A DNA stretch of 20,000 nucleotides from an uncultured virus (IMG/VR IMGVR_UViG_3300020294_000004) (taxonomy: Duplodnaviria; Heunggongvirae; Uroviricota; Caudoviricetes; Crassvirales): IMG/VR virus record IMGVR_UViG_3300020294_000004; one strand, given 5' to 3'. Made by a program: the position numbers and the translations under genes. This document shows positions 1,824-18,469 of the stretch, one piece after another (the stretch's first letter is position 1; every line of letters starts with the position of its first letter). The notes beneath the pieces are model-generated. The model saw only the letters and a program-made list of their open reading frames with translations, ran no database searches and was not told the origin of the DNA.

Positions 1824-4800
1824 TTAGGTTATTACCCAATAAAAGTTAGATGGATTCTGAGGAAAACCAATTCCTGAAAGATCTGTTATTGTATTATTAA
1901 AAGTTATTCTATCATAACCATTAAAACTTTGCCACAACACTGTAGTTGTACTTGTATTTAAGGTAATATCTAACAATTGAGCATAAGGACTATCACCATC
2001 AAAAACTACTAATGAATCTGTAGAGCTTGTAACTGAATAAGATACGTTTTGTACTGCTGATACACCTGTTAAAAAATTAATTAAAGTTTGCCCACTAGAT
2101 GTGGTTTCAGAAAAATTAACAACAAATTCATTGTTACCTAGGTTACTCATGTTATATATGTTCATTTTACCATACTGAACACCACCTGCCGGCGTACTAC
2201 ACGGTAACCTTTGCGCATCACTTAGTGATCTAAAATTAGTTGCTGTATTAAGGGAACTATTACCAATACAAGGTTGAGCTGTTTGCATTAATTTTTTACC
2301 CGTATTACTAAATTGAGCAGTCCATTTTCTAACAAATGGTTGACCTGTTCTACTGTATGTTGATGTTGATGATGATGAGCTAGTAGGGTTTGGTGCACCA
2401 CCATTTTCTGAATTTGCATTTTCATTACCCCATACAACATTTAAATCATCATTATTAACGCCGCTGTATGAAAAATATTTATCACCTGTAGTACCAGGTA
2501 CATAAGCAGAAGTTAAAGCAGGATCAGTAAATAATTGTGATATATATCTAAAAGCCCACTCTCTTGCATATACTAATATACTAGGTGTTTGACAAGCTGC
2601 CATTTCTCTTGTGTCATATGCTTCACTTATTCTATATTCATACGATACAGGATTACTAACACTTGTTGTTTTTGTAGCTACTCCTAACTGGTTTACATAT
2701 GTATTTAATAGTTGTTCAGGATTATAAAAATCTCCATAACTTAAATAAACTTGTTGATTTTTAGTTGCTTGATTATAAGACATATACTGTGTAACTTCTA
2801 CATTACCACTAAATACACCTGGACATGTATTAAATTGAGAAAAAGTAGGTATAATCTTATTACCTGCATTAAAACCAGGCGTATTAAAAGGTGGAGCTGA
2901 TGCTAAATCTGATTTTATATTATCTCCATAAGGGTATCTTACAACTAATCTATATTCTCCATATCTATCTGGAGCGCTTGATGGTGCTTGACCGTTACTT
3001 TCTCTGTAAGCTGAATTTCTACCTATAGCAAATATTTTTCTACCTGTTGTATTAACAGCAATATTACCACTGTCTTGCTGGCCTGTATATGTACACTGAA
3101 AAGCGTCATTAACATTGAAAAAATTATCTGAATCTCTTGCTGCATCTGCTTTGTCTATAATACCTGTGTTTCTAAACAATGAACCTAAAGACGTTGTTAT
3201 ATTTTCATTGTTTATTTGTGTACCACCAAATTTAATTAGTTTACCTTCAACATCATACGCATCAGACCAAGGATCATTACCATTTTCTCTATACTGAAGT
3301 TTAGTTGGCCATATAACTGATGGCTGATACCTTCCAGAACCACCTGTTGGTATATCTAAGTAATTAGTTAATTCATAATCTATAACTATATATGCTGTTC
3401 CAGATTTTAATCCAACAGCAGGTGTTCCACCTTGAGCGCTTGAGGTTTGATCATTTCTTTCTCCTGCCGCAGATCCAGCTAAACCATTTCTAATACCTGA
3501 ACCAGGTCTTATATTAGCATTTCTATTTGTGTTATAAAAATTCCAAGAGTCTAACATTGCTGAAACAGGGCAATCACTAACACTTGTAGTAAGATCAAAT
3601 ACAGAACCTCCTGTAGTAGGATTAGCCGCAAAACCTTCAAATTTAGGTGTTAAACTTCCTACATTTTGTTGCCAACCAATAGTGTCTGGATCATAAAAAC
3701 CAGGACTAGTAGATTGACCCCAACCAAAAATAGATGATTCAGAACCTAAATTAATAGCTACATTTTTAGCAGCAAAAAAGTCAGTGTTTAAAACATCAGA
3801 TTCATAACCATTACTACCATTTATTGTAAATGAACACGTTGTAGTAGGGTTTCCATTAGGTAAAGGGTATGTTGTATCTACAGCACCTGCGTCTGTCACA
3901 GCTACTGTTATAGGGTAACTTACATTTAACAAACCAGATTCATCTTTTATTGTTGCAGAACCATTACTACCTGTTACAATTTTTATTTCTGGTAAACCAT
4001 CAGTTGGAGAAGCAGGTATTGTAGGTGCAAAACCACTTGTTTGATTTAAACCATATGCTATACCCCATGTAAGATCATCATATTGTTTAGATGTGTCCGC
4101 TGTACCATTTACAGCATTTAATGTAAATAAATCAGTAATACCTGCGTCTGTTCCTACAACACCTGTTGCTGGACAGTTTTGTATTATAGGTGACTTATTT
4201 AACAGTCTTTGATCAAAAGTTAATATTGTTTTAGTTCCAAAATTAGGATTTGTTGATGCATTACCATCTAAATTTTCTACTTCAAATGTAAAAGTAAAGC
4301 TATCATTATCTATAGATTGTTCACCAAAATAAAAATAAGAGTTATTTATAAATATTTGGTAACTAACAGGTGAAGCATTTGCATTTCTTACTAATTTAAA
4401 TTTATTAGAAACATCTTCACCATTGTTGTTAACAACTTGAAAACCAGGTTGTTGTGTTGTGGGCATTGTAGTGCCTGATGTAGCAACTGCTCCTGATATG
4501 TTACTGTTTTGTACTACTGTTTTTAAACCTGCTGCATCTTCTGTATAAGGAAAAAATGGTTTAGCTACAGCTGTAGCATAACTTCCTGAATAACTTACAT
4601 TAGGAGATTGTCCAGGTGCTATATCTTCAAATAAATTAAATGTCCAACTTGATGGTGGATTACTACTTGTATCTGTAGTAAATCCTTTTATACCTGCTGT
4701 TGTTTGTATTGCTTCATTTAACTCAGCTATTGTACCTGTTGTAGAAGTTTCCCAATATATATCTAGTCTAGATTCAGTAGGTATTGTTTCATATATACTT

Positions 4801-7346
4801 AACCAAGTATTAACAGCTGTTGTACCTGATGCAGGAACTGTAGAACCAACAGGTTGAGTTATAGATACTCTAGCCATTGATGGATTAGAAGCTGTTTGAT
4901 ATATAGATCCAAACTTTATATTCGTAGTGTTATCAAATAAATCATTTTGATCACTAATTGTAGCAACTGTATCAGGTAAAGCAATATTTGTAGCTGTATT
5001 TATAGGGTTAAACTGATAGTTATCTAAAGGTTGAGCTATTGAAGAGGGTGCTACTCTACCAAATAAACGAACAGAACTTCTAAATTGTTTTTGTTCTGGA
5101 CCTACTTCTGTAAGATCTCTTGGTACTTTATTTATATTATCGTTTAATAAAGTTATATAAGATACGGATCCAGCTACATCTGGATCAGCTGTAACAGGAG
5201 GATAAAAATTCATTAAACCAGGTAAATACACATTATAATAATCTTGTTCTGTTTGTTTAACTACTATTTTATAACTGTACCAACCTAACGGATTATAGCT
5301 TGCACTTGTTGGATCACCATTATATAAACCTGGCCAACCATTTTGTGTATTAGCTTGAAACTCAGGAACAATAGCATTAAATAATACTTTAATAGAATCA
5401 CCTGGCCATGTATTTATATTGTTATCTGCATTATTAGTACTAGATACAGTATTATAAGGAAAATATATTGTATCACCTAATAAAGTTAAATTATCTTCAT
5501 CTGTTCCTTGGCTTGTTGCTGATGATAATATTGTAGTAGATGATCTACCATATTTATCAGATAATACAACCCCTACTTGATAGTTTCTATTTTGTTTAAT
5601 AGTGTGCATTGGATACTCCCTAGATGATGTTTTATATAGTGGAGCAGGCACCGTAGGATCATCTGTTACAAAATTTGTGTATTTTTCTGATACAGCAACA
5701 TTATAATTTAAAGTTTCTGGTGGTGTATGTTTATTTTGAAAGTTACTATATACTACCCTATTACTTATTATTTCTTGACCTAAAGCTCTTACCGGTGATT
5801 TATCATATACTCTTATTAGTTCACTTTCAGGTAAAGTTTTATAAGGTTTAGTACTTTGATAGTTATAAGGTATAACATTACCTGCACCACCTAGCTCTGC
5901 ATAACCACCAGTACCCTCCCAAGAAATAGCATCTACTACTTGAACAGCTAATGCATCAGACTCTTTATAAAGTATTTCTATTTCTTCAATTTTTAATTTA
6001 GTAAATAATTCATTAGCTGGTACATGGTTGTTGTTTTCATCTAATGGTGTAGGTATTTGTAATATAATATTATTAACTTTATTTTCCATAAAATCAACAA
6101 CTGTACTTCTGAATGTAGATTGTTCATCAGTAGTCATACCTGTAGGAGTTGTGTTATTTAAAAAATAACCATCTTGTTTAGGTATAAAAGCAGCCTGCGT
6201 AAAAGGTGCCATAATAGAATATTCACCTGTATCGTATTTAAATCTATAACTAAATTTTACAAACTTATCTTCTAAAAAATCAGGATCTCCATTAAACTTA
6301 GGGTTGTAATTAGGATTTGTTGTTAAACCAGGATAATCAGAGTTATATGTTCCGCCTGGATTCATTTTACTACTAGCATCTAACATACTGGTTACATAGT
6401 AGTTAGGTGTAGATATATTGGTAAGAGTATTCTGATTAAAATATATAATAGTACCAGAAGGTATATCTTGAGTTACAGTAGCTAAAGGTGTACCAGCTGC
6501 TATATTAGCAACATCAATTATAGTCATTTGATTACCATTAGCAAAGCTTTGTAATACTGAATTAGCTGGTATACCAGGTACAGTTGCACCATTTGCATCT
6601 ACAGCTGTAATAGTAGATCCTACTAAAGTTTTAGGATCTGTTCCTAATGTTGCAGCAATACCTAAACGATTATTAGATGTTATTAATATAGTACTGCTTC
6701 CTGTAGATGTTATGCCATCTGTAACAGCTGAACCTCCATTAGGTAAAAATGTTGACTCTCTTTTGTAATATAAATTTATAGGTTGAAAAGGAGCATATGT
6801 TGCAACCGATATTTGGTCTTCAGTTGTATAATAACCTGCTTCTTTTGTTATATCTATTCTTCTTGGTTGGTTTCTATTGTCTGTCCAAAATAATATGTTT
6901 TCTAATAAATTAACACCAATAATAGGTTTGTTTTTAGAAAAATTTAAAAAGGCTCCACTTAGTAATTGAATAGAAACACCTGTAGCTACATTATAAACAT
7001 ATACATAGTTGTTAGCTGTAGAAGAATAATTAAGTGATTGAGGTGTATAAGTATAACTAGCTGTGTTTAATGTTTCGTCATAGTCAGTTAGAAATATATA
7101 TATGTTCGTACTTACTTCGTCTGTGTAAAAACCAATAGTTTCTAAGTCACAATTACAACCACTTATACTTTTATAGTCTTGTATTTCTATATTACCTAAT
7201 ACATTTTCTAACGCTCCAACGTCGGCACCTTCTGATTTACTTACTTGTATATTAATTCCTTCACGATACTCACCATTTGGTAATAGCCTGGCATCCAGGT
7301 CTTTATTCATTTTGGACTTAATAAAAGCATTTTTAACTTCTGCCAT
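1824..7346 (-). CDS. Large tail protein: stabilisation/muzzle-like N-terminal part plus a long Ser/Thr/Gly/Asn-rich extension with a cadherin/Ig-like domain
   Basis: 1840 aa. The N-terminus (KMNKDLDARLLPNGEYREGINIQVS..GALENVLGN, LFWTDNRNQPRRI, FSYRFKYDTGEYS, YQVGVVLSDKYGRSS) is typical of crAss-like stabilisation proteins. It directly follows the ring-protein genes. Confidence 0.7.
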   Translation of the reverse strand: MAEVKNAFIKSKMNKDLDARLLPNGEYREGINIQVSKSEGADVGALENVLGNIEIQDYKSISGCNCDLETIGFYTDEVSTNIYIFLTDYDETLNTASYTYTPQSLNYSSTANNYVYVYNVATGVSIQLLSGAFLNFSKNKPIIGVNLLENILFWTDNRNQPRRIDITKEAGYYTTEDQISVATYAPFQPINLYYKRESTFLPNGGSAVTDGITSTGSSTILITSNNRLGIAATLGTDPKTLVGSTITAVDANGATVPGIPANSVLQSFANGNQMTIIDVANIAAGTPLATVTQDIPSGTIIYFNQNTLTNISTPNYYVTSMLDASSKMNPGGTYNSDYPGLTTNPNYNPKFNGDPDFLEDKFVKFSYRFKYDTGEYSIMAPFTQAAFIPKQDGYFLNNTTPTGMTTDEQSTFRSTVVDFMENKVNNIILQIPTPLDENNNHVPANELFTKLKIEEIEILYKESDALAVQVVDAISWEGTGGYAELGGAGNVIPYNYQSTKPYKTLPESELIRVYDKSPVRALGQEIISNRVVYSNFQNKHTPPETLNYNVAVSEKYTNFVTDDPTVPAPLYKTSSREYPMHTIKQNRNYQVGVVLSDKYGRSSTTILSSATSQGTDEDNLTLLGDTIYFPYNTVSSTNNADNNINTWPGDSIKVLFNAIVPEFQANTQNGWPGLYNGDPTSASYNPLGWYSYKIVVKQTEQDYYNVYLPGLMNFYPPVTADPDVAGSVSYITLLNDNINKVPRDLTEVGPEQKQFRSSVRLFGRVAPSSIAQPLDNYQFNPINTATNIALPDTVATISDQNDLFDNTTNIKFGSIYQTASNPSMARVSITQPVGSTVPASGTTAVNTWLSIYETIPTESRLDIYWETSTTGTIAELNEAIQTTAGIKGFTTDTSSNPPSSWTFNLFEDIAPGQSPNVSYSGSYATAVAKPFFPYTEDAAGLKTVVQNSNISGAVATSGTTMPTTQQPGFQVVNNNGEDVSNKFKLVRNANASPVSYQIFINNSYFYFGEQSIDNDSFTFTFEVENLDGNASTNPNFGTKTILTFDQRLLNKSPIIQNCPATGVVGTDAGITDLFTLNAVNGTADTSKQYDDLTWGIAYGLNQTSGFAPTIPASPTDGLPEIKIVTGSNGSATIKDESGLLNVSYPITVAVTDAGAVDTTYPLPNGNPTTTCSFTINGSNGYESDVLNTDFFAAKNVAINLGSESSIFGWGQSTSPGFYDPDTIGWQQNVGSLTPKFEGFAANPTTGGSVFDLTTSVSDCPVSAMLDSWNFYNTNRNANIRPGSGIRNGLAGSAAGERNDQTSSAQGGTPAVGLKSGTAYIVIDYELTNYLDIPTGGSGRYQPSVIWPTKLQYRENGNDPWSDAYDVEGKLIKFGGTQINNENITTSLGSLFRNTGIIDKADAARDSDNFFNVNDAFQCTYTGQQDSGNIAVNTTGRKIFAIGRNSAYRESNGQAPSSAPDRYGEYRLVVRYPYGDNIKSDLASAPPFNTPGFNAGNKIIPTFSQFNTCPGVFSGNVEVTQYMSYNQATKNQQVYLSYGDFYNPEQLLNTYVNQLGVATKTTSVSNPVSYEYRISEAYDTREMAACQTPSILVYAREWAFRYISQLFTDPALTSAYVPGTTGDKYFSYSGVNNDDLNVVWGNENANSENGGAPNPTSSSSSTSTYSRTGQPFVRKWTAQFSNTGKKLMQTAQPCIGNSSLNTATNFRSLSDAQRLPCSTPAGGVQYGKMNIYNMSNLGNNEFVVNFSETTSSGQTLINFLTGVSAVQNVSYSVTSSTDSLVVFDGDSPYAQLLDITLNTSTTTVLWQSFNGYDRITFNNTITDLSGIGFPQNPSNFYWVIT

Positions 7347-10238: not shown

Positions 10239-11687
10239 TTAAATACCTTTGAATAATACAAAGTTATTTGCAGCTTGAGTTACTAAACATCTTTCTGATA
10301 GGAAGTTTACTTCCATAGCATCAAGATTAGAAGTGTAAGCACCTCCAGCTGATCCAGTTAACCAAGACTTCATACGTCTGTCTTCTGTTTGAGAAGCTCT
10401 ATATCTAACGTGTAAGAATGGTCTTCTAATGTTTGTACCTAAAATTTGGTCATAAACAGTTGAAGTACCAGCAGGGATTAATACTCCTTCAATTGATTGA
10501 GTACCATCAATAGCACCTCTTGTAGAAGCGTCATTTAAGTATTTCCAATCAGTTTTGTAGAAGTCATATGAACCTCTTCTGAAACCACTAAATCCAAGAT
10601 TTAAAGCCATTTCTTCTGAGTTTTCAAATAATCCATAAGCAGTACCACCATTGCTACCGTAAGATACATTAGATAACATGTTATCAAAGTCTAAAGCTGT
10701 AGATCTTTGTAAGAATAACATATTTTCTTCAATAGCACCTTGAGTATCTAGGTTTTTAAGTATTGCATCAAAGTCATCTAAACCAGAAGCCGCAGAAAAT
10801 CCTACTTCTACGTTACCTCTTGTAGAGATAGCAGCGAAAAGACCTTCAGTACCTTTGAAACCAGCAGCAAATGCATCACCAGCTCCAACGTTAACAGCTT
10901 TTTCACCTTCAACACATACCATTTCTAAATAATCTTCAAATCTAAGTCTTGTTTCAGACTCAGCTTTTAAATACCATAAATAACCTGTAGTTCCATCTTC
11001 TGTAGCAACTTCAACCCAACCTATTTGAGCCATATCAGATCCGTTTATTGTGTAAACATTTCTAATTATGATAGGTGAATTGTTATATTGTTGAAAAGCA
11101 GGAGTTACAGTTATCTGTGGTTGAACAGCTGTATTTCCAGTTATGTTACCTGCAGCAGCGTTAGATGTAGCAGCGCCTTTAACAAATTCTGAACCATATA
11201 CAAATATTTTAAATTTAGCTGCATTAATGCTAGCTAAAGTTGTAGCAGTATAAGGAGATACGTGAACGTGACCGTTTGCAGTATCTGACTCAGTTACAAC
11301 ACCTTTAAGCTCTGCACCTTGATCATCTAATAAAACTACTGTTGAACCGGGTGAAATAACATTTCTTGTTACACCTGGAGAAGTAGGAAGTGGAACAGTT
11401 ACTCTTCTTGTTCCGTTGTGAGTACAGTTATCATATGCAATATGTAATCTGTTTTGTTCTGACCAAACAACTTGATCTGAAGTCATAGGCATTTCAGCAC
11501 CTACCATACGTAAAAAACCAGAAAGAGTTCTGTTTCCATATCTTTCTACTTCTTGTTCGTATATTTCAGGTAGATATTGCTGAGCAAAATCATTATTACC
11601 ATCTGTAAAAGATAGGTAATTACTGGCTAATAGCTGCTGATTAGGAGCAGGAACTATTGAGCCAAATTGTGGAGTTAAAATTCCCAT
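10239..11687 (-). CDS. Major capsid protein (HK97 fold, crAss-like)
   Basis: 482 aa, after portal and scaffold, followed by a hairpin. N-terminal QQYLPEIYEQEVERYGNRTLSGFLRMVGAEMPMTSDQVVWSEQNRLH and C-terminal MEVNFLSERCLVTQAANNF resemble MCPs of this phage group. Confidence 0.85.
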   Translation of the reverse strand: MGILTPQFGSIVPAPNQQLLASNYLSFTDGNNDFAQQYLPEIYEQEVERYGNRTLSGFLRMVGAEMPMTSDQVVWSEQNRLHIAYDNCTHNGTRRVTVPLPTSPGVTRNVISPGSTVVLLDDQGAELKGVVTESDTANGHVHVSPYTATTLASINAAKFKIFVYGSEFVKGAATSNAAAGNITGNTAVQPQITVTPAFQQYNNSPIIIRNVYTINGSDMAQIGWVEVATEDGTTGYLWYLKAESETRLRFEDYLEMVCVEGEKAVNVGAGDAFAAGFKGTEGLFAAISTRGNVEVGFSAASGLDDFDAILKNLDTQGAIEENMLFLQRSTALDFDNMLSNVSYGSNGGTAYGLFENSEEMALNLGFSGFRRGSYDFYKTDWKYLNDASTRGAIDGTQSIEGVLIPAGTSTVYDQILGTNIRRPFLHVRYRASQTEDRRMKSWLTGSAGGAYTSNLDAMEVNFLSERCLVTQAANNFVLFKGI

Positions 11688-11704: not shown

Positions 11705-12985
11705 TTAATTAAACGTTTTTCTTTTTATTTTTAACTTTGAAGAATCAACACCACTAATTGCTTTTACTTTTAAACCATTTACAAATAATTCACCTGAAGC
11801 TGTTTTACGAGGTTCAGTTGTTATATTTTTAGATTTAGCCATCTGTTCTTTTAATGCATCAGTTTTACCTTGTTCATAAAAGTGATTAGCAATAGTATCA
11901 GCATTTCGTGCAGCAAATAAAGCTTTGTGGTATCCTTTAGCGTCAGTTACATCTCCTTTTTCATTTAAGAACGTCTTAATAAAGTTTGATATATTACTTT
12001 GACTTTGGGCCACTGATGAAGGGTCTTTAATACCATATCTGAATTTTTTTTCTCCTAATTTAAAATCAAAACCTTTGAATTCTTCGTTGAGAAGGTTTTT
12101 TGTTTCAGATACAAACCTTTCATGACTAGCTTCACGTGCTTTTTGTTCTTCATTATAGCGATTAAAAAAGTCATTAGCTTTTTGTTGGTCCTGTGTTATG
12201 CCGGGTCTCAACTTGATTTCGTCATAATACTTTGTTTTTAGGTCCTCTAAATAGTTTTTGGCTTTTGCTATCTCTTCTTTATAAGCAAGTTTTTTCTTTT
12301 TTATATCTCGCTCATCATCCACCTCAGTATCAAATCTAAAAGAATCTTCAATTATAAAGTTTCTTTCTTCAGCGTCTAAATGAGGTTTAGCTTGTTTATA
12401 ATATTCATGAAGTAATACATCATTATTTACGTTTGTATAATCAGCATTTAAACGGGCATAATCTTGTACGTCACCACCCGTTTCTTCCATGAATTTTATT
12501 AATTTTTCTATGTTTTCAGGTAACTTTTGTGTTTCAGTTTCCTGTGATATTTTTTCTTGTTTCGATGTGGTAGCGGTAGTTTCATCGCTTCCTGCCACTC
12601 TTGTCTTGTCAGTATTATCTTCTTCATCTGTTATTAATTGTAAAGGTGAATCAGATTCTTCTTTTATTTCTTCAGATTCTTTTTTATCTGTAACATCTTG
12701 AATGGTGTCTTGTACTTGTTCGTCCACCTTAGCGCTATCTCCGGCTTGTTCGCCCACATCCACCTTCTTTGTTTCTCCGACTGGAATGGCATCTTCTTTT
12801 GGTTTTTTAGTTAAATCTACTTTTACTAAATCAGGTATTATTTTTTCTTCACCTAATTGTTTTGGCTTAGTTACTTTTTTTATTTTAAAACTACCTTCTT
12901 CTTTTGGAGGTGTTGTATTTGTAGCTTGTTCTTGTTTAGTTTCTTTTACAGGTTCTTCAACCATTACTTCTTCTTTTTGTGACAT
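11705..12985 (-). CDS. Putative capsid scaffolding/assembly protein (426 aa)
   Basis: Located between portal and MCP. Acidic low-complexity N-terminal third and helical C-terminal part. The start is moved from the ORF-track 13024 to ATG 12985 (MSQKEE), because the extra 13 codons are AT-rich leader overlapping the portal stop. Confidence 0.65.
   Translation of the reverse strand: MSQKEEVMVEEPVKETKQEQATNTTPPKEEGSFKIKKVTKPKQLGEEKIIPDLVKVDLTKKPKEDAIPVGETKKVDVGEQAGDSAKVDEQVQDTIQDVTDKKESEEIKEESDSPLQLITDEEDNTDKTRVAGSDETTATTSKQEKISQETETQKLPENIEKLIKFMEETGGDVQDYARLNADYTNVNNDVLLHEYYKQAKPHLDAEERNFIIEDSFRFDTEVDDERDIKKKKLAYKEEIAKAKNYLEDLKTKYYDEIKLRPGITQDQQKANDFFNRYNEEQKAREASHERFVSETKNLLNEEFKGFDFKLGEKKFRYGIKDPSSVAQSQSNISNFIKTFLNEKGDVTDAKGYHKALFAARNADTIANHFYEQGKTDALKEQMAKSKNITTEPRKTASGELFVNGLKVKAISGVDSSKLKIKRKTFN
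12508..12627 (-). CDS. Putative overprinted microprotein (39 aa, +1 frame in scaffold gene): MKKIILTRQEWQEAMKLPLPHRNKKKYHRKLKHKSYLKT
   Basis: Hand translation from ATG 12627 to TAG 12510-12508. GC is 25/50 at 12561-12610 versus 14/60 at 12631-12690. Contains an NKKKYxRKxKHK motif reminiscent of ArfA-like basic tails. Confidence 0.6.
   Translation of the reverse strand: MKKIILTRQEWQEAMKLPLPHRNKKKYHRKLKHKSYLKT
12664..12792 (-). CDS. Putative overprinted microprotein (42 aa, +1 frame in scaffold gene): MPFQSEKQRRWMWANKPEIALRWTNKYKTPFKMLQIKKNLKK
   Basis: Hand translation from ATG 12792 to TAA 12666-12664. GC jumps at the ATG: 39/70 at 12721-12790 versus 23/100 at 12801-12900. A-rich leader. Resembles the MPFxSExQRRxMxAxxPExAxRW small proteins I recall as free-standing phage ORFs. 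Confidence 0.7.
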   Translation of the reverse strand: MPFQSEKQRRWMWANKPEIALRWTNKYKTPFKMLQIKKNLKK

Positions 12986-13010: not shown

Positions 13011-15428
13011 CTATTGTGGAGCAAACTGCTCTAAACCAAATCCATCTAAATTATCATTACCAGCACTTTCAAAATTTACAGGTAATGTATCATTTTGTCT
13101 TTGATTTATTAATTCACTCTCTTGAGTTCCTTGCATTTGTACGCGTTTGTCTTTTCTATCTTCTATTTCTGTTTCTTTTTGACGTTTTGTTTGAGATCTC
13201 ATTTCTTCAAGCTGTATGTTATATCTAAATTCTTCAGCCATTAATTGTTTTTTAATTAATGCTTCTTGTTCCATACGTTGTATCTCAAATTGAGATTTTG
13301 CTTGTTCTATTTGAACTTCGGTATCAGCTAATGCTTGGTTTTTTTGTACTTCTGCCATTGCAGCTTTTTCAGCTGACTGTGCATTGGCAGCTGCTTGAGC
13401 TTGTATATTTTCTAATTGTTGTGCTCTGTCTTTTTCTTGCTTTTGTTTTTGCCTTAACTTAAGCATTTGATTAGCAAGTTTAATATTTTTTATTTCTCTT
13501 AAATCTATTGCATCTTCTAAACCTATATTTTTAGCTTGTAATGCAATTTGTATACTTTGTTCTAGTTGAGCTTTTTCTTCTTCATCAGGTTCAAGTTCTA
13601 AAAATATACCAAAATCATGTAAAGATAATTTTTCAACTTCTTCTAATGTTGCTGTATTAAAACCATTTATACTGTTTATTAAAGACTGTTTAGTTGTTGG
13701 AAACTGTAACATATCTGATACTCTTAAACTAATATTTTCACAAACTCTTACAGTTAAATACATTAATGCTTGTAACACATGTCTTGTAGCTGTATTAGAA
13801 TTAGCAGCTGCAAGCTTTTGTAAACCAACTAAAGCATTTTTATCAGGCGTGCTACCATCTCTTGCTTCATTAAGCCCGGTTACATCTCTTATCATTTGTA
13901 AATAATATTGATAAGTTTGTATCATTGACTGTATTTTAGACATGCCTGAAGACGTCTGTAATTCTTGCACCGGTACTTTACCTCTATTTAAATCACCATC
14001 TTGAGTTAAAGATCTTCCTACTACACTACCTGTTTGAAAATACATATTTAACGCTTCAGCAGGATTATAATTTGTACCATTACCTAAATCAACTTCGGCT
14101 AACCCATCAACATCTAAATAAACACCATCAGGTACTAACCTTGATATTACTTGTTGTAGTTTTAAATGAGTTAATTGAATCATATCTGCAAATCCAACTG
14201 TTTTACTTACAATAGATTCTATACGGCCTTGATACATTCTAGGTGAACTAATAACGTAATTCATATTAACTTTAGTCGTATCACCAAAAGGCCTTGTCAT
14301 GTTTTCACTTAATTCCCATTTTAAAAGATTATTACCAAGACCTAAAACTTTAGCTCCAGTATATAATACTTCTATTGATCTTGATATTCTATTAAAGTTA
14401 TCACTAGGTGGTGGATTAAATGTATCTGGTTTTTCTAATGTTTTTTCTAAACCTTGTTCTGTTTGTTTTATTTTAAAAACTTGATCTTGATAAGTTTTAT
14501 ATTCAAAATATAATATTTGTACTTGATCTTTAGTGTCTTGGCCCCACCAAGTGTTTTCTAGATATGTATTTCTACCAGGGTATTTTTGTATTTCTTCTAA
14601 TTCTGAATCTGTTAAATAAGGAAATTGTCTTTTAACTTCTGATAATGACATACTTTTAACCTCACCTACATAATATATATCTTCAAAATTTGGATCATCA
14701 GTATATGAATATACTAAATTAGCTGGATTTACATAATCTATAGTTATTCCTTCAGATAAATTAAAATCAGTTTTAACACAACCTATACCTAAAACAGTTA
14801 GATCGTATGCTAATTGTTTTTTTACTTGATCATATTTATTATAGTCTAAAATATTATTTATAACTTCTTCTTCTGCTATTTCAACACTTTGTTTAAAGTT
14901 TAATTGTAAATAAAGATCTAATTCTTCTGTAGTTCCTGGTAAATCATCTGGTGATGCTGAAGCAAATAAATTAGCATTAGGGCCTAATTGAGCTTGTAAT
15001 GCTTCAATCATTTCTTTATTTTCAATATCTCTTATAGCATTTTGAGCAAATGTAGTTTTATTTTTTATAGCAAATGGATCTTGAGCAAAAGATTTTATTT
15101 CATAACCTTTTTGTGTCATACCATTTACTACTATATCTACAAACTTAGATAATATTGGTACAGGCTTCCAATCTAAATTTAAATAAGATAAATCACCATT
15201 TATAGCTAATTCATCTTTATATTTTTGTACTGGTTGTTCTCCTCTAGCGTAAAGTCTTAGTCTATTAAAATTTTGAAAATTATTAATATATCTATTTTGA
15301 CCACTAGAGTTTTTAAACCACTCATATTCAATTGCTTGGGCTACTTGTAAACCATACTCTTTTGACTTTTTCTCTTCTTCAGGTACCACCTGATCTGGAA
15401 AAGCACTGTTATAGTTAATATTAACCAT
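13011..15428 (-). CDS. Portal protein
   Basis: 805 aa, coupled to terL by a TAATG overlap. LDWKPVPILSKFVDIVVNG, IRDVTGLNEARDGS and a long Q/E/K coiled-coil C-terminal barrel are typical of podoviral/crAss-like portals. Confidence 0.88.
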   Translation of the reverse strand: MVNINYNSAFPDQVVPEEEKKSKEYGLQVAQAIEYEWFKNSSGQNRYINNFQNFNRLRLYARGEQPVQKYKDELAINGDLSYLNLDWKPVPILSKFVDIVVNGMTQKGYEIKSFAQDPFAIKNKTTFAQNAIRDIENKEMIEALQAQLGPNANLFASASPDDLPGTTEELDLYLQLNFKQSVEIAEEEVINNILDYNKYDQVKKQLAYDLTVLGIGCVKTDFNLSEGITIDYVNPANLVYSYTDDPNFEDIYYVGEVKSMSLSEVKRQFPYLTDSELEEIQKYPGRNTYLENTWWGQDTKDQVQILYFEYKTYQDQVFKIKQTEQGLEKTLEKPDTFNPPPSDNFNRISRSIEVLYTGAKVLGLGNNLLKWELSENMTRPFGDTTKVNMNYVISSPRMYQGRIESIVSKTVGFADMIQLTHLKLQQVISRLVPDGVYLDVDGLAEVDLGNGTNYNPAEALNMYFQTGSVVGRSLTQDGDLNRGKVPVQELQTSSGMSKIQSMIQTYQYYLQMIRDVTGLNEARDGSTPDKNALVGLQKLAAANSNTATRHVLQALMYLTVRVCENISLRVSDMLQFPTTKQSLINSINGFNTATLEEVEKLSLHDFGIFLELEPDEEEKAQLEQSIQIALQAKNIGLEDAIDLREIKNIKLANQMLKLRQKQKQEKDRAQQLENIQAQAAANAQSAEKAAMAEVQKNQALADTEVQIEQAKSQFEIQRMEQEALIKKQLMAEEFRYNIQLEEMRSQTKRQKETEIEDRKDKRVQMQGTQESELINQRQNDTLPVNFESAGNDNLDGFGLEQFAPQ

Positions 15429-17650
15429 TAATTTAGTATTTTTGAAGTTACTCCTTTATTATTATACTTTTTAAAGTCTAAAGGTAAATTATTTATAGTT
15501 CTTTTTACTGTTGGTGTATATCTGTTTTTATTACAAGCCATAATAGCTAAGCCAGAACTTATGGAAGCATCGTGTTTAGTTCTATTATTTATATTAAACT
15601 TAGCCCAGTCTTCTAGTGTTCTTTGAAAATACATATCACCATATCTTTCATTATTAAATCCAATAAAATTTTCAATATAATCTTCTATCGCAGCTGCATG
15701 TGCTTGTTTTATATCTTCACTTGAATTAGGTATACCACCTATTTCTCTTTCTGTAACAGATAATTTATTATATACTTTATCAGGACGATTCATAGAATAA
15801 CCTCTATAACCTCTTCTTTTTAAATAATATAATAATCTAGGTTTATTATTTTCTGCAAGTAATGGCATACCATAAAAAACTAAAGCCATTAAAACATCTT
15901 CAAAAAATATTTCTGCTGTTTGAGGTCTTGCAATATATTCTAAAAAAAATAAATTAGGTGGTACATCTTCCATTGAAAACTTAGTTAAACCATGTAAAGA
16001 AGCTTTTGAACCTCTACCATCAACTGTTCCTGAAATATCATATGGATCACAACCAAAAGCACCAGTATGATCGTTACCTGGATATTTAACACCATTTTTT
16101 ATAATATACTTGTTTTGTAAATTATCATTAGGTACCCAAGAAACTAAAAATCTACCATTATTATTAGGAATAAATATAACTCTACTATCTTTAATCCCAT
16201 TTTCCCATTGAAAATTACCTTTTGTAATTACATTTGTATTTCTTAAATCTTCATTATAATCAATTTGTTCATAAATTTTAGTTAGATTAAATAAAGATTG
16301 TTTTGCTTCATCTCTAAAAGCGTGTTTTTCTGTTCTAGGAAATTGTCTATAAAATTCATTTAAACCGTCTTGATCATTTTTTAAACCTTCAACTTCGTTT
16401 TCCCAGTGTGAGATAACGCCAATTTCAATGTTGGATCCGTCAATACTTTTGACCGGTTTTTTTGGAGTTTCGAATACAGGAAACCCATAAGTATTAAGGT
16501 ATCCTTCGTAGTTCCATTCCATAGGTATGAACAAACTATATAATCCTGAATTAGTCTGTCCGTTGCGGTTTCTTTTTGTAACATCTGACGCATCATATAA
16601 TTTTTTAAAATTATTACCTCCTTTATCTAAAGCATTAGATGTAGATCCCATCATACACCTACCTATAATTCTACTACCTAATCTTAGCGTTGTCTTCGTG
16701 ACCCTCCAGTTGTTGAGGATGTTATCTGGCCTCTCCCACTTGCCCGATTCATCGTGTGCGAGGAGTTTGAGTTTCTCCCCGTCGTATGAGTTGTCACCGG
16801 TATTCTTCCAGTCGATCGTGGTATCGAGCCCAACGAGTTCCTCGGGACGTTCATTCTGATCGATCTTACGCCTTGTGAACTTCGACGCGGGTACACGATA
16901 TGCAAGTTCCGTTTTGGGACGATCCATACCGTCCTGTATCGGTTTAAAAAAGAATGGGTAATTAACGGATATTGGTACCACTTTGTCTGTAAACATTTTC
17001 TTCGCATCTGCTCCAGTCTTTGATAATATCCCGTACCGTGAATCACTAGATATTGTTGCCTGGTGTACGAGTTCTGATGAGGCCATAAAAGAAAATCCCG
17101 ATCTTCTATTCTTGAGATAGCACATTCCATAGGATCTGGTATCAAGTTTACAGGCTTCCCAAAATATGAAAAAGATTCTATTGGCTTCTCTGAATTCCGC
17201 GTTGCCAACATCAATTTTTGTCCACTGCAAGTACATATAATGAGACCCAGTAATATAGCTAGGAATACCTTTGTTATAGAAACAAAAGCCTTCTTCACGT
17301 CTTTTAAACTCTTCGTCAATATAATCATACCAAGTATTTTTAAAATCTAATGATGTTTGGTTCCAATCAAAAACTGTTTTAAGTTTTGATAATTGTTTTG
17401 GGTACTCAAATATTTCCCAATATTGATCTGTTTTATTTACAGATCTTTTATATACATTTTCACTTAAAGGTAAAGCTATTTTTAAACCCTGTATTTCATA
17501 TATTTCACCTATTTTACCTGTTTTACTTATAACAACTACATCGTGTTCTTTGTTATAACCTGGTTCCCATTTTTTATACCTATTATTATTTTTTATAATT
17601 TTAGGTTTTATATGATTAGGTAAAATTTTATATAAAGTGTTTGTATACAT
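15428..17650 (-). CDS. terL: Terminase large subunit
   Basis: 740 aa. Walker A variant LKNRRSGFS, Walker B LLAHDESGK, coupling motif GSTSN, nuclease motifs GAFGCDPYD and HDASISSG. Directly upstream of the portal. Confidence 0.93.
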   Translation of the reverse strand: MYTNTLYKILPNHIKPKIIKNNNRYKKWEPGYNKEHDVVVISKTGKIGEIYEIQGLKIALPLSENVYKRSVNKTDQYWEIFEYPKQLSKLKTVFDWNQTSLDFKNTWYDYIDEEFKRREEGFCFYNKGIPSYITGSHYMYLQWTKIDVGNAEFREANRIFFIFWEACKLDTRSYGMCYLKNRRSGFSFMASSELVHQATISSDSRYGILSKTGADAKKMFTDKVVPISVNYPFFFKPIQDGMDRPKTELAYRVPASKFTRRKIDQNERPEELVGLDTTIDWKNTGDNSYDGEKLKLLAHDESGKWERPDNILNNWRVTKTTLRLGSRIIGRCMMGSTSNALDKGGNNFKKLYDASDVTKRNRNGQTNSGLYSLFIPMEWNYEGYLNTYGFPVFETPKKPVKSIDGSNIEIGVISHWENEVEGLKNDQDGLNEFYRQFPRTEKHAFRDEAKQSLFNLTKIYEQIDYNEDLRNTNVITKGNFQWENGIKDSRVIFIPNNNGRFLVSWVPNDNLQNKYIIKNGVKYPGNDHTGAFGCDPYDISGTVDGRGSKASLHGLTKFSMEDVPPNLFFLEYIARPQTAEIFFEDVLMALVFYGMPLLAENNKPRLLYYLKRRGYRGYSMNRPDKVYNKLSVTEREIGGIPNSSEDIKQAHAAAIEDYIENFIGFNNERYGDMYFQRTLEDWAKFNINNRTKHDASISSGLAIMACNKNRYTPTVKRTINNLPLDFKKYNNKGVTSKILN
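16381..16596 (-). CDS. Possible second overprinted ORF in terL (+1 frame, 71 aa)
   Basis: ORF track. Same frame as 16684-17328. GC is 66/180 at 16381-16560 versus 25/120 at 16201-16320. No recognisable motif. Confidence 0.35.
   Translation of the reverse strand: MMRQMLQKETATDRLIQDYIVCSYLWNGTTKDTLILMGFLYSKLQKNRSKVLTDPTLKLALSHTGKTKLKV
16684..17328 (-). CDS. Putative overprinted lipoprotein/membrane-anchored protein (+1 frame within the terL ATPase domain, 214 aa; alternative GTG start at 17298)
   Basis: 214 stop-free codons in the +1 frame of an AT-rich gene. Basic N-region, hydrophobic VFLAILLGLII, then CTC-SG (Cys32/Cys34). R/S/T/G-rich tail. GC is 94/180 at 16741-16920 and collapses right after its stop. 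Confidence 0.6.
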   Translation of the reverse strand: MIILTKSLKDVKKAFVSITKVFLAILLGLIICTCSGQKLMLATRNSEKPIESFSYFGKPVNLIPDPMECAISRIEDRDFLLWPHQNSYTRQQYLVIHGTGYYQRLEQMRRKCLQTKWYQYPLITHSFLNRYRTVWIVPKRNLHIVYPRRSSQGVRSIRMNVPRNSLGSIPRSTGRIPVTTHTTGRNSNSSHTMNRASGRGQITSSTTGGSRRQR

Positions 17651-17922
17651 TATCTAGATCTTCCTTCAGCAAAACCTCCAAAATTAGAAGCTTTAGTATT
17701 TTTATTAATAGAATTAATTATATTTTCTTCTTCTTCAATTCTTGATAGTATTTCAAAAGCATCAAATATAGCTAATTTTTTTGTAGCAGCAGCGTTTTTT
17801 AATCTGTCAGCTGATACATCATCTTCTGAATCTACAATTTTTTCTTTAGCTACTTTTATTAATTCTTCAACTGCTTTTTGCCCAGCTTGGATTATACGTT
17901 TTTTGGTTTTGTTTATTTCCAT
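17650..17922 (-). CDS. Probable terminase small subunit (90 aa)
   Basis: Small helical protein coupled to terL by TAATG at 17650. The start is revised from the ORF-track 18009 to ATG 17922 (MEINKTKKRIIQAG). Function is assigned by position and size only. Confidence 0.5.
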   Translation of the reverse strand: MEINKTKKRIIQAGQKAVEELIKVAKEKIVDSEDDVSADRLKNAAATKKLAIFDAFEILSRIEEEENIINSINKNTKASNFGGFAEGRSR

Positions 17923-18469
17923 ATTTAAATAAAATATCATTTGATTCCATACAGTATAAAAGTTCATTATCAATAACAAACTCAAATTCTCTATTACTTT
18001 TAAACCCAACTAGATCTCCTGTGTTAATTTTAAGGGCTTCTAACGTGCTGTTTGTATATTTTAATACTCCAGTATTTTTTATTAATTTGGTATCTTTATA
18101 TACATCTTTTTCTAATACTGGTTTTACAAAACAATAATCTGCGTTTGTTTTCCACCCTTTTTTATAATACATATAAATTTGAGATGGATGTGCAAAATAT
18201 AAATTGTCTTTAAAAAACTTAGTACTATTTACTGATTTGCCTTTTAAATTATAATACCTTCTAAATAAATTATGATGTACTATAACTTTGTCACCTTTTT
18301 TTATATTTGTTTTATAAGCAAGAGGTGCAGCAACTATTTCAGCATGTCTATTTATAAATTTATGATTTGATATACTTGAGTTAAGTATAAGTTCTGTGTT
18401 GTTGATTTTTAATTTATTATTATATCTTTCACCTATAGGTTTTATAATAAATTGATATATACTATTCAT
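17867..18469 (-). CDS. GroES/Cpn10-like co-chaperonin with two tandem domains
   Basis: 200 aa with two GroES-like units: FIIKP...AEIVAAP...IKKGDKVIV and YCFVKP...TGVLKY...INTGDLVGF..EFEFVIDNELLYCMESNDIL. Compare GroES vkvGDkVlf..gtevkidgeeylilresDIL. Confidence 0.65.
   Translation of the reverse strand: MNSIYQFIIKPIGERYNNKLKINNTELILNSSISNHKFINRHAEIVAAPLAYKTNIKKGDKVIVHHNLFRRYYNLKGKSVNSTKFFKDNLYFAHPSQIYMYYKKGWKTNADYCFVKPVLEKDVYKDTKLIKNTGVLKYTNSTLEALKINTGDLVGFKSNREFEFVIDNELLYCMESNDILFKYGNKQNQKTYNPSWAKSS

Follow-up and report, generated by a model that had tools for sequence, protein, structure and literature searches.

A gene of 42 codons, read in the +1 frame and enclosed end to end by a larger gene on the same strand, is very probably encoded within the window (the whole 20,000-nucleotide stretch of marine phage DNA analysed here), and comparison of homologous loci argues that selection maintains both of the overlapping frames. 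The overlap lies in a predicted disordered linker of a protein encoded at the scaffold position, between the portal and major-capsid-position genes, and the nested product belongs to a large family of viral proteins that share an N-terminal segment beginning Met-Pro-Phe or Met-Pro-Tyr, here called the MPF hairpin.

The nested ORF and its host gene

The nested ORF reads from an ATG at 12792-12790 to a TAA at 12666-12664 and starts 193 nt (64 codons plus one nucleotide) past the ATG of the host ORF. The original prediction had described a +1 ORF of 42 residues with three tryptophans, and just such an ORF is present, with W11, W13 and W23. It overlaps host residues 65-107; the host-frame residues across the overlap, DAIPVGETKKVDVGEQAGDSAKVDEQ, carry a net charge of -8 and are specified by codons that include GCC, GTC, GTG, GGC, AGC and GAC, the GC-ending codons that had been picked out as rare in this genome. 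The anomaly is measurable as a host-frame GC3 of 0.32 in the overlap versus 0.13 for nine genes of the window, and so is the jump in GC content that had been reported at the ATG, with values of 0.51 at 12700-12789 and 0.24-0.33 on either flank. GC content of the phage is about 30%, and the nested ORF sits on an island of 51% GC, the same value as that of the stretch encoding its N-terminal module.

The label 'scaffold' for the host gene reflects position and shape only, namely the order of the portal and capsid-position genes around it and a protein that is predicted to be largely helical and elongated. In an AlphaFold2 model built from 61 sequences, pLDDT is below 50 at residues 1-58, 60-111 and 121-151, where helix is absent, and a helical core follows at 155-390 with long helices at 225-259 and 265-302; the suggestion that double coding falls in a disordered region thus agrees with the model. 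Relatives of the host protein are encoded in 596 of 600 pattern-matched viral stretches, and its Elemovirus homologue is annotated as a 'structural protein'. The host protein had no Pfam match above threshold, a weak 'tail assembly' family (E = 0.04) as its best PHROG match, no sequence match in the PDB, and no PDB fold match at E <= 0.001 when the scaffold model was used in the search. We infer the capsid role of the gene directly downstream from its position, and its product found no match among PDB sequences.

Table 1. Coordinates of the nested gene, its parts and the surrounding genes.
Feature	Position	Strand	Details and basis
Nested microprotein gene	12664..12792	(-)	42 codons plus TAA, +1 frame of host gene; ORF listing, homology, selection
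Conserved N-terminal module (residues 1-28, MPF hairpin)	12709..12792	(-)	predicted helices 6-15 and 17-26
Variable basic tail (residues 29-42)	12667..12708	(-)	peptide alignment
Purine-only, A-rich leader without Shine-Dalgarno sequence	12793..12813	(-)	55 unique upstream sequences
A AAA AAG heptamer, in phase with nested frame	12679..12685	(-)	sequence
Host gene, 426-aa protein, scaffold position	11705..12985	(-)	between portal and major-capsid-position genes
Predicted disordered N-terminal region of host protein (residues 1-151)	12533..12985	(-)	AlphaFold2, 61 sequences
Portal gene, directly upstream of host gene	13011..15428	(-)	phrog_6547 portal protein, E = 7.4e-137
Major-capsid-position gene, directly downstream of host gene	10239..11687	(-)	phrog_13704 'virion structural protein', E = 2.2e-88

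Conservation of the nested frame

An open +1 frame of this length is by itself just mildly unusual. When the host frame was resampled synonymously 20,000 times, the chance of a +1 ATG ORF of at least 42 codons was 2.5%, and +1 open runs averaged 31 codons, so that it is homology and conservation that carry the case. Purine-rich sense strands often leave alternative frames open, as that probability of 0.025 illustrates, and a junk-like alternative-frame ORF of 214 aa lies within the terminase gene. It can accordingly be argued that the nested ORF is no gene at all, being either a frame left open by chance in DNA poor in T and rich in purines or the silent remnant of a former in-frame domain, with constraint on the scaffold or on RNA structure mimicking conservation of a peptide.

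Occurrence was counted in the best 80 of some 600 or more scaffold loci, in which scaffold identity to the window extends down to 51%. A homologous +1 ORF of 37-57 aa with an ATG start, beginning MPF, is present at the same place in 67 of these 80 homologues, and the host frame is open and the nested ATG retained at every one of the 67. These contigs are not copies of one sequence, as they encode 57 unique nested peptides. The 13 other loci comprise one in-frame fusion, one decayed remnant and 11 that lack the ORF. In the decayed remnant (L023) the ATG is gone and TAG codons occupy two Trp positions, with the scaffold frame intact; a truly decayed copy thus looks quite different from the intact ones.

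Nucleotide differences among 37 nearest-neighbour pairs are strongly asymmetric. We counted 196 that are silent in the nested frame and change the host protein, 43 of the reverse kind, 92 that alter both frames and 2 that are silent in both, against a mutational opportunity for the first three classes (silent in nested, silent in host, changing both) of 64:78:236. Because the disordered linker aligns poorly, the scaffold-protein alignment of this region is uninformative for diversity, and codon-position diversity was anchored on the nested-peptide alignment instead. It amounts to 0.369/0.345/0.476 at nested codon positions 1/2/3, which makes the host wobble position the one that varies least in the overlap; the corresponding values for host codon positions 1/2/3 in the scaffold core are 0.251/0.166/0.464. 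Of 2267 pairs, moreover, 90% show higher conservation of the nested peptide than of its host-frame counterpart (identity 0.50 versus 0.37). Retention of the ATG and of the +1 peptide in preference to frame-0 residues had been named as one of the checks on the original prediction, which comes through it intact. These substitution patterns indicate that the nested frame is under purifying selection and is more strongly constrained than the host frame. The excess of 196 to 43 differences over an opportunity of 64:78, the universal ATG, the variety of the peptides, the appearance of the decayed copy and the homology to annotated free-standing genes of unrelated phages described below leave the non-coding explanation extremely improbable.

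The host frame has left its own imprint on the nested gene. With the nested peptide held fixed and codons drawn according to phage usage, the host frame was open in 0 of 5000 draws, and the same calculation for the 57 peptides gave a median openness of 0 and a maximum of 0.02. Nested third positions are 5% T and 52% G, compared with 45% T and 7% G in the genes of the window, and 22 nested relatives show the same pattern (6% T, 54% G). Third positions of 55 relatives that are not overlapped are 25% T, and the corresponding frame is open in only 4 of the 55; free-standing copies do not have the T-purged codon bias. Purging of T and enrichment of G at nested third positions keep the host linker both open and acidic, and the local GC island results from this codon purge.

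The MPF hairpin family

Searches for free-standing homologues of the nested peptide, the other check that had been named, returned large numbers and so also favour the original prediction, and the stand-alone phage motif that it had put forward proves to be real. Annotated genes whose products start MPF/MPY-x-S-E/D-K-Q include gp48 of Streptomyces phage FlowerPower (72 aa), which adjoins a holin gene, and a 39-aa gene of phage 023Pt_psg01; unannotated MPF ORFs occur in phage C75C1 and in Prochlorococcus phage P-RSP2, where the copy sits among small early-region ORFs. The tblastn matches in unrelated phages begin at residue 1, and two of them are annotated genes. Across 24 aa the window peptide is 62.5% identical to FlowerPower gp48 and to the C75C1 ORF; it is 79% identical to the relative P0003 (E = 1.4e-8), and the window ORF matches the local HMM with E = 4e-21. 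M1, P2 and Q8 are invariant among the 57 nested peptides, as are M1, P2, F3, S5, Q8, P17, A20 and W23 among 25 free-standing relatives, and the window peptide has all of the family features: the M-P-F/Y start, S5, Q8, aromatic residues at 11 and 13, P17, A20 and W23.

When 1.84 billion representatives were searched with a profile, 2273 matched at E <= 1e-3 and 296 at E <= 1e-10. The module occupies residues 1-30 in 146 of the 150 matches listed, which range from small proteins (47 of 80 aa or less, 31 of 81-150 aa) to 72 longer ones, and the C-terminal parts of these 72 form 14 clusters unrelated to one another. Altogether the module is carried by 1550 longer proteins, and a Pfam domain is absent from 119 of the 120 listed. 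Phrog_1375, a family of unknown function, aligns weakly to residues 3-27 (E = 3.3e-4), and the nearest Pfam-annotated neighbour in the ESM Atlas is a DUF3008 (PF11450) cluster (score 0.83, 15% of members). The window protein and 17 relatives had no Pfam match at E <= 10, DUF3008 included; among 30 long fused forms, Pfam gave nothing usable and PHROGs a single unrelated family of unknown function. The family profile had 0 matches at E <= 10 to PDB sequences, a cluster look-up of ten relatives yielded no informative names, and the long fused protein P0021 had no tblastn match among phages, its relatives not being found in viral contigs. MPF motif strings and any mention of the family were absent from the literature searched; reports on overlapping genes in phage scaffolding genes were restricted to phiX174-type systems and method papers, and a search on Elemovirus and Flavobacterium phages found nothing on a nested ORF.

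Gene neighbourhoods of the 55 non-overlapped relatives are often those of virion genes. Thirteen follow a portal gene, 17 start at the stop codon of a gene for the phrog_3287 virion protein, two lie beside 'DNA ejection protein' genes and one beside a 'head assembly' gene. We considered phrog_3287 (734 aa) as a candidate portal and rejected it, its matches in cultured phages being annotated as 'phage stabilization protein', tail or virion structural protein.

The nested arrangement was not found in cultured phages (a collection of 50,697 records), and the Elemovirus and MW202828 homologues are without a nested ORF. A second, independent +1 nesting of an MPF ORF does occur, inside an ORF of at least 2787 aa on an unrelated contig. 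Since the MPF family is far wider than the scaffold family, the nested gene is likely to be an older small gene that was enclosed by the linker of its neighbour, rather than a product of de novo overprinting.

Probable translation of the nested gene

The A-rich leader that had been noted ahead of the nested ATG is indeed present and contains purines only. In 55 unique upstream sequences A is found at -3 in 89%, at -5 in 95%, at -8 in 91% and at -11 in 96%. The host phylum of the phage is likely to be Bacteroidota, and one published account (PMC6847099) describes Bacteroidetes start sites that lack a Shine-Dalgarno sequence and at which initiation is favoured by A at -3. It is thus probable, judging from the leader sequence, that ribosomes initiate independently at the nested ATG on the structural-gene mRNA, using an unstructured, A-rich leader devoid of a Shine-Dalgarno sequence.

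A different outcome would follow from a programmed -1 frameshift, in which translation starts at the nested ATG and slips in the A-rich tail to give a hairpin-scaffold fusion, beside the 42-aa protein or in place of it. The heptamer A AAA AAG at 12685-12679 is in register with the nested codons, slippage by -1 there would lead into the scaffold frame, and one locus (L041), at which the MPF module is joined in frame to the core of the scaffold protein, shows that a hairpin-core fusion can be encoded. Against this, a slippery heptamer in the right phase is present in just 17 of the 65 unique nested ORFs, so that frameshift fusion was rejected as a general mechanism; the heptamer is probably a by-product of Lys codons, from which the phase bias follows, and K-rich tails are found equally in free-standing relatives. 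The L041 fusion, moreover, is accounted for by a shift of frame by one base and is known from a single contig. We regard a programmed frameshift as very unlikely.

Gain, loss and exchange of the nested gene

The 12 of 80 loci that lack an intact copy are scattered on the scaffold-core tree; parsimony places 6 losses or gains of the intact copy on it, of which at least 2 are forced by well-supported branches of this quick tree. Locus L022 and its near-identical sister L024 differ by a clean swap of about 130 nt that spans the ORF. No second copy is present in the available part of a 40-kb record that is without the nested copy (the record is estimated to be 62% complete). The nested gene is therefore dispensable or replaceable in some lineages. 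Four divergent peptide subtypes can be recognised, requiring 11 changes on the portal tree and 12 on the scaffold-core tree (minimum 3, shuffled mean 25); the subtypes are shuffled equally with respect to both and give no indication of having been inherited together with either gene, portal and scaffold core showing no difference in this respect.

These patterns bear on two alternatives to the function proposed below. One is that the protein is a cofactor of assembly with the portal or the scaffold as its binding partner, the hairpin tethering the two or nucleating the procapsid, and is essential rather than cargo. Synteny with portal genes in at least three lineages, the module-scaffold core fusion of L041 and the encoding of a basic peptide (+10) and an acidic linker (-8) by the same DNA all speak for it. 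The loci without an intact copy, together with the missing second copy in the 40-kb record, fit poorly with an essential assembly role, and the subtypes track neither the portal nor the scaffold core, so that we consider such a cofactor unlikely. A prediction of the complex between the portal (805 aa, 40-row alignment) and the microprotein, for which controls were not run, scored 0.00 and weighs neither for nor against binding.

The other alternative is a moron-like accessory gene for host interaction, encoding a small basic effector that acts on the host or on DNA, early or late, from a tolerant spot in a structural operon; counter-defence, exclusion and regulation of nucleic acids are example roles, and the product would be no part of the structure or of its assembly. 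Presence and absence differing between near-identical phages, the cassette-like swap of about 130 nt, subtypes that are shuffled against both flanking genes, relatives that adjoin a holin gene or sit in an early region, and the combination of a constant N-terminal module with highly variable tails are all in keeping with it. On the other hand, 30 of the 55 non-overlapped relatives directly follow a portal or phrog_3287 gene, and three more lie by ejection-protein (2) or head-assembly (1) genes. A purely accessory role is in our estimation doubtful, and it overlaps with the function that we favour because an injected effector would fit both.

Predicted structure and proposed function

AlphaFold2 predicts the microprotein with a pLDDT of 76.6 (84-92 over residues 1-20) and helices at 6-15, 17-26 and 31-40, so that the window protein is modelled as a two-helix hairpin followed by a basic tail. 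Its net charge is +10, and the 57 unique nested peptides range from +8 to +17 with a median of +11. The best matches in a BFVD fold search were uncharacterised homologues only (rmsd 0.5-1.5).

We tentatively propose, as our best guess at its function, a virion-internal docking module with a polybasic tail. The product would be a hairpin of 28-30 residues folded around three aromatic residues and followed by a short polybasic tail, and the hairpin would serve for docking or targeting, carrying any sequence attached behind it into the interior of the procapsid or virion. The 42-aa form may then be the minimal cargo, a basic peptide that would associate with DNA or with the acidic scaffold linker encoded by the same DNA. 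We favour docking or targeting because the same hairpin is N-terminal in thousands of viral proteins that are otherwise unrelated in sequence, many of them encoded next to portal, tail-hub-like or ejection-protein genes; as in a capsid-targeting signal, a shared N-terminal segment precedes unrelated remainders, here in 14 C-terminal clusters. The original prediction had suggested a basic nucleic-acid-binding or capsid-cargo peptide co-expressed with the scaffold, and the gene neighbourhoods of the relatives are consistent with that suggestion. A bolder version, which we put forward as rather unlikely, is that the MPF hairpin is a portable loading tag of marine podophages, such that any carrier, from a polybasic peptide of 40 aa to a low-complexity protein of 800 aa, would enter the capsid and probably be delivered with the DNA.

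Comparison with other embedded genes

The lysis gene E of phiX174 sits inside gene D, which encodes the external scaffolding protein, in the +1 frame; its product is a membrane protein, and the gene originated inside D and is not known beyond the microviruses. The arrangement described here is similar in that a short gene with a start of its own is enclosed in the +1 frame of a morphogenetic (scaffold) gene, so that one stretch of DNA would specify two products. It differs in that the MPF protein is predicted to be soluble and highly basic and has a family that extends well beyond that of its host gene, and in that the overlap lies in the disordered linker of a dsDNA podophage gene, with the nested frame the more constrained. 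In phage lambda Rz1 is embedded in the +1 frame of Rz; these spanin genes are partners in lysis, both carry membrane signals, and across phages they are found separated, overlapped or embedded. Complete +1 embedding in a tailed phage is common to both cases, and the MPF gene likewise occurs free, fused or nested, whereas it has no lysis features and a partnership with the scaffold protein is at most putative. Lambda Nu3, within C, and similar nested scaffold genes also yield a second product from within a head-assembly gene, but they use in-frame internal starts and produce a C-terminal fragment of the same sequence, unlike the MPF frame, which differs from that of its host and encodes an unrelated product. 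The capsid targeting sequence of T4 (IPI-III, Alt), of about 10 residues and cleaved by the prohead protease, offers by analogy a possible model for the proposed function, since it too is a short conserved N-terminus on otherwise unrelated proteins, in that case from inside the virion; the MPF module has no sequence likeness to it, and packaging or cleavage of MPF proteins is putative.

Implications

The comparative signatures of this overlap are unusually clean for both frames, and they illustrate that a disordered linker can hold a second gene that is the more strongly constrained of the two. They also provide a mechanistic explanation for a local anomaly in GC content and codon usage. Small nested proteins of this kind are systematically missed because gene callers forbid long same-strand overlaps, and following up one of them has exposed a very large viral family that is without a Pfam model or a solved structure. 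It comprises 2273 representative clusters and over 1500 longer, fused forms, and a common role in targeting is suggested by the way in which one constant N-terminal module is combined with variable remainders. The findings further suggest that overlapping genes may arise by the enclosure of an older gene as well as by de novo overprinting. If the MPF hairpin is a loading tag, the family would mark a large and unrecognised set of virion-borne cargo, possibly including counter-defence effectors, and would exemplify an unusual route to gene overlap, in which a disordered linker engulfs an old gene and the small gene then dictates the sequence of the linker; engulfment of this kind would have happened at least twice, in the scaffold gene and in the ORF of at least 2787 aa.

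A Nested Reading Frame in the Scaffold-Position Gene

The window holds the structural module of a tailed phage, approximately 30% GC, with all genes on the minus strand (see table). The product of its scaffold-position gene has no family that could be found in Pfam, PHROG or the PDB, and the name is a label taken from genome position and a predicted helical core, not from homology. Its only relatives in cultured phages are distant (∼32% identity over the core) and belong to Flavobacterium phages, Maribacter phages and one spring-water podovirus, which points to a Bacteroidota host. The source viral record is 37,045 bases long and is judged 57% complete.

Coordinates of features in the window and at related viral loci
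Feature	Location	Strand	Remarks
Large terminase	window 15428..17650	-	PHROG profile phrog_6681, E = 5.5e-162
Portal	window 13011..15428	-	PHROG profile phrog_6547, E = 7.4e-137
Scaffold-position gene	window 11705..12985	-	426 codons; between portal and capsid-position gene
Nested ORF	window 12664..12792	-	42 codons, three Trp
Capsid-position gene	window 10239..11687	-	PHROG profile phrog_13704, E = 2.2e-88
GroES-like co-chaperonin gene	window 17867..18469	-	200 aa; phrog_13932, E = 6e-24; just upstream of terminase
TTG ORF	window 17650..18009	-	119 codons; shares ∼140 nt with GroES-like gene
Terminase-internal ATG ORF	window 16684..17328	-	214 codons, alternative frame
1840-aa protein	window 1824..7346	-	matches part of phrog_14478
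490-aa protein	window 318..1790	-	matches a different part of phrog_14478
Remnant of nested ORF	L023:2798-2935	+	scaffold frame open
Module-core fusion	L041:2773-3813	+	347 aa; same contig as L159
Second nested MPF ORF	L127:5001-5135	+	44 aa
ORF enclosing it	L127:1769-10129		acidic, at least 2787 codons
Segments compared for replacement	L024:2118-2640 and L022:777-1300		∼130-nt replacement
Podophage MPF locus (example)	L094:3538-4188

Two of the window's other proteins match phrog_14478 ('virion structural protein', 1474 positions) and look as if they were one long virion protein, split or duplicated. The ORF inside the terminase gene has an Arg/Ser/Thr-rich translation and looks like a typical off-frame product.

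The original prediction placed a microprotein within an acidic linker of the scaffold-position protein, and the ORF is present as it described. Its ATG lies 193 nt into the host gene, so that it is read in the +1 frame, and it overlaps host-protein residues 65-107, inside a region (residues 1-151) predicted by AlphaFold2 to be without structure, with pLDDT mostly below 50. GC content is 0.51 over the nested ORF as compared with 0.24-0.33 on each flank, and the GC-ending codons said to be rare in this genome are borne out by a host-frame GC3 of 32% in the overlap versus 13% in nine window genes. Synonymous resampling of the host frame gave a +1 ATG ORF of at least 42 codons in 2.5% of draws, and an open frame by itself is weak evidence for a gene.

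Scanning IMG/VR with the scaffold protein gave 600 pattern matches, 596 of which encode relatives. The best 80 were kept, and replacement of the window's own contig (L005) by the window left 80 genes at 51-87% identity to the window's scaffold protein. A +1 ORF is present at the same place in 67 of these (57 unique peptides), starting M-P-F/L/I, with 37-57 codons and a Lys-rich tail at the end. AlphaFold2, with 57 sequences, predicts helices at microprotein residues 6-15 and 17-26 and, at lower confidence, a tail helix (31-40); the pLDDT of residues 1-20 is 84-92. The same DNA gives net charges of +10 for the nested peptide and -8 for the host-frame residues in the window, with medians of +11 and -7 over the 57 variants. 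One peptide subtype (L015, L040, L058, L081 and others) has two conserved cysteines, K-A-C-W ... W-D/N-C-K-K-W, where the subtype found in the window has its aromatic pattern; in another subtype the loop is three residues longer, A-M-L-L-S-K-N-x-K-T-V.

The 21 bases 5' of the nested ATG are nearly all purine, with A at -3 in 89% of 55 unique sequences, and Shine-Dalgarno motifs were found neither at this leader nor at the window's canonical starts. According to Baez et al. (PMC6847099), A at -3 promotes initiation and Shine-Dalgarno sequences are missing from Bacteroidetes mRNAs, which makes independent initiation at the nested ATG plausible. A fusion made by frameshifting is unlikely to be the general rule, as an in-phase slippery heptamer is present in only 17 of 65 unique ORFs.

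A Widespread N-Terminal Module

The microprotein matches no Pfam model and matches phrog_1375, a family of unknown function, weakly (E = 3.3e-4). When 50,697 phage records were searched by tblastn, 16 of them matched at E <= 10, and the strongest matches began at query residue 1; annotated genes start exactly at the match in FlowerPower (gp48, 72 aa) and phage 023Pt_psg01 (39 aa), and the matches in C75C1 and P-RSP2 lie in unannotated gaps. We note that 023Pt_psg01 also has a GroES gene near its free-standing copy. A word-indexed search yielded two small proteins, one with 79% identity across an N-terminal alignment that covers 69% of the query, and a profile of these two and the microprotein, searched over 1.84 billion representatives, gave 2273 matches at E <= 1e-3 and 296 at <= 1e-10. 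The match starts at residue 1 in 146 of the 150 matches listed. Proteins of up to 80 aa account for 47 of the 150 and those of 81-150 aa for 31; the other 72 are longer and form 14 groups that share no similarity in their C-terminal parts. A further search, aimed at longer proteins, yielded 1550 at E <= 1e-3, and Pfam domains are absent from 119 of the 120 listed. No informative name was present in 10 clusters of relatives, no PDB chain matched the profile, and the motif strings were not found in the papers searched. Given these many residue-1 matches, and with no names, structures or literature attached to them, the first 28-30 residues, a predicted two-helix hairpin here called the MPF module, are a unit that commonly opens viral proteins and appears to be previously undescribed.

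A profile made from free-standing members was used to find further viral loci. Of the best 80, scaffold homologues enclose 22, one is the contig of L041, one is probably a truncated scaffold, and one, L127, is on an unrelated contig of 51% GC, where an acidic ORF encloses the module in its +1 frame. This is a second, independent case of nesting, and its third positions are again T-poor (4/44). For the remaining 55, the neighbours scanned were the 74 plus-strand proteins of at least 190 aa. A portal gene (phrog_1216 or phrog_156) immediately precedes 13 of these loci. Another 17 encode long proteins, and there the MPF start falls at the stop codon of a gene for a phrog_3287 'virion structural protein'. 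Two more adjoin 'DNA ejection protein' genes and one a 'head assembly' gene. We rejected phrog_3287 as a portal, since it resembles 'phage stabilization protein' and tail proteins of cultured podophages. In another podophage lineage (L091, L094, L119 and similar) a phrog_1216 portal is followed by a 92-aa ORF overlapping the portal end, a 51-aa MPF gene, a small basic gene of 77-78 aa starting MPQVGKKKFPYTS or MPKVGKEKFPYTS, and an acidic Pro-rich protein of 380-440 aa without a family.

Selection on the Two Frames

Three comparisons show that the nested frame is the more strongly constrained. Aligning the DNA on the nested peptide, with 66 unique rows and 28 columns, gives nucleotide diversities of 0.369/0.345/0.476 for positions 1/2/3 of the nested codons. 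The lowest value belongs to nested position 2, which is the host wobble position; across the scaffold core, host positions 1/2/3 have 0.251/0.166/0.464. Of 2267 pairs compared over 17 codons, 90% show higher conservation for the nested peptide than for the host-frame one (0.50 vs 0.37), as do 98% of 136 pairs over 28 codons. Finally, 37 nearest-neighbour pairs differ by 196 changes that are silent in the nested frame and alter the host, as against 43 of the reverse, with 92 changing both and two neither; the possible single changes in the window ORF number 64 nested-silent, 78 host-silent and 236 changing both.

The host frame is also maintained. When codons for an unchanged nested peptide were sampled according to the codon usage of the phage, none of 5000 draws for the window left the host frame open, and over 57 peptides the open fraction had a median of 0 and a maximum of 0.02; in nature that frame is open at all 67 nested loci. 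At the third position, nested codons have T in 5% and G in 52% of cases, versus 45% and 7% in the window's genes. T there, before the frequent codons beginning AA, AG or GA, would create host-frame stops, and G would yield Asp, Glu, Gly, Val or Ala. The purge of T and enrichment of G at nested third positions explain the GC island and its 'rare' codons. In the 55 non-overlapped relatives, T occupies 25% of third positions (33% in neighbouring genes) and the equivalent frame is open in only four; the 22 nested ones in that scan have T at 6% and G at 54%.

Loss and Exchange of the Nested Cassette

An intact nested copy is missing from 12 of the 80 scaffold loci. One of these, L023, retains a recognisable remnant in which the ATG is ATA, two Trp codons are TAG, and more Trp and Cys codons are altered, and it serves as a natural control for the appearance of lost constraint. 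The distant homologues in Elemovirus and MW202828 have shorter N-termini and no nested ORF. In the one remaining locus, L041, the module is in the scaffold-core frame, and the N-terminal scaffold segment is a separate 76-aa ORF ending in TAA just past the module; a one-base frame change explains this arrangement, which occurs in a single contig and may be either genuine or the result of an indel in the assembly.

Several observations speak against an essential assembly role for the nested gene. Its absences are scattered on a quick scaffold-core tree (six parsimony changes, at least two forced by well-supported branches), and a 40-kb record lacking it shows no second copy within the sequence available. 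L022 and L024 have near-identical genes save for a ∼130-nt swap exactly spanning the nested ORF, a clean replacement that indicates cassette-like recombination inside the scaffold gene; the replacing segment resembles the linker of lineages without the ORF. Four peptide subtypes require 11 changes on the portal tree and 12 on the scaffold-core tree of the same 49 loci (minimum possible 3, shuffled mean 25), so the cassette recombines independently of both neighbours. The pattern is as compatible with an accessory role, or one in host interaction, as with a cargo role.

Implications

The nested gene is very probably real; the function we propose for it is tentative. Internal proteins of T4 carry a capsid targeting sequence, and a constant N-terminal module joined to unrelated remainders, encoded among virion genes, likewise has the architecture of a targeting signal. 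By this analogy the MPF module may be such a signal, a reading we prefer but with low confidence.

In phiX174, gene E lies inside the scaffold gene D, and in lambda Rz1 lies inside Rz; these are the closest precedents. The present case differs from both in host gene class and phage group, in that the nested frame dominates a host segment that is disordered, and in that a second host gene, unrelated to the first, shows the same arrangement. It differs further in that the nested gene belongs to a family extending far beyond the host gene; this implies that an older gene became enclosed there, as opposed to arising de novo.
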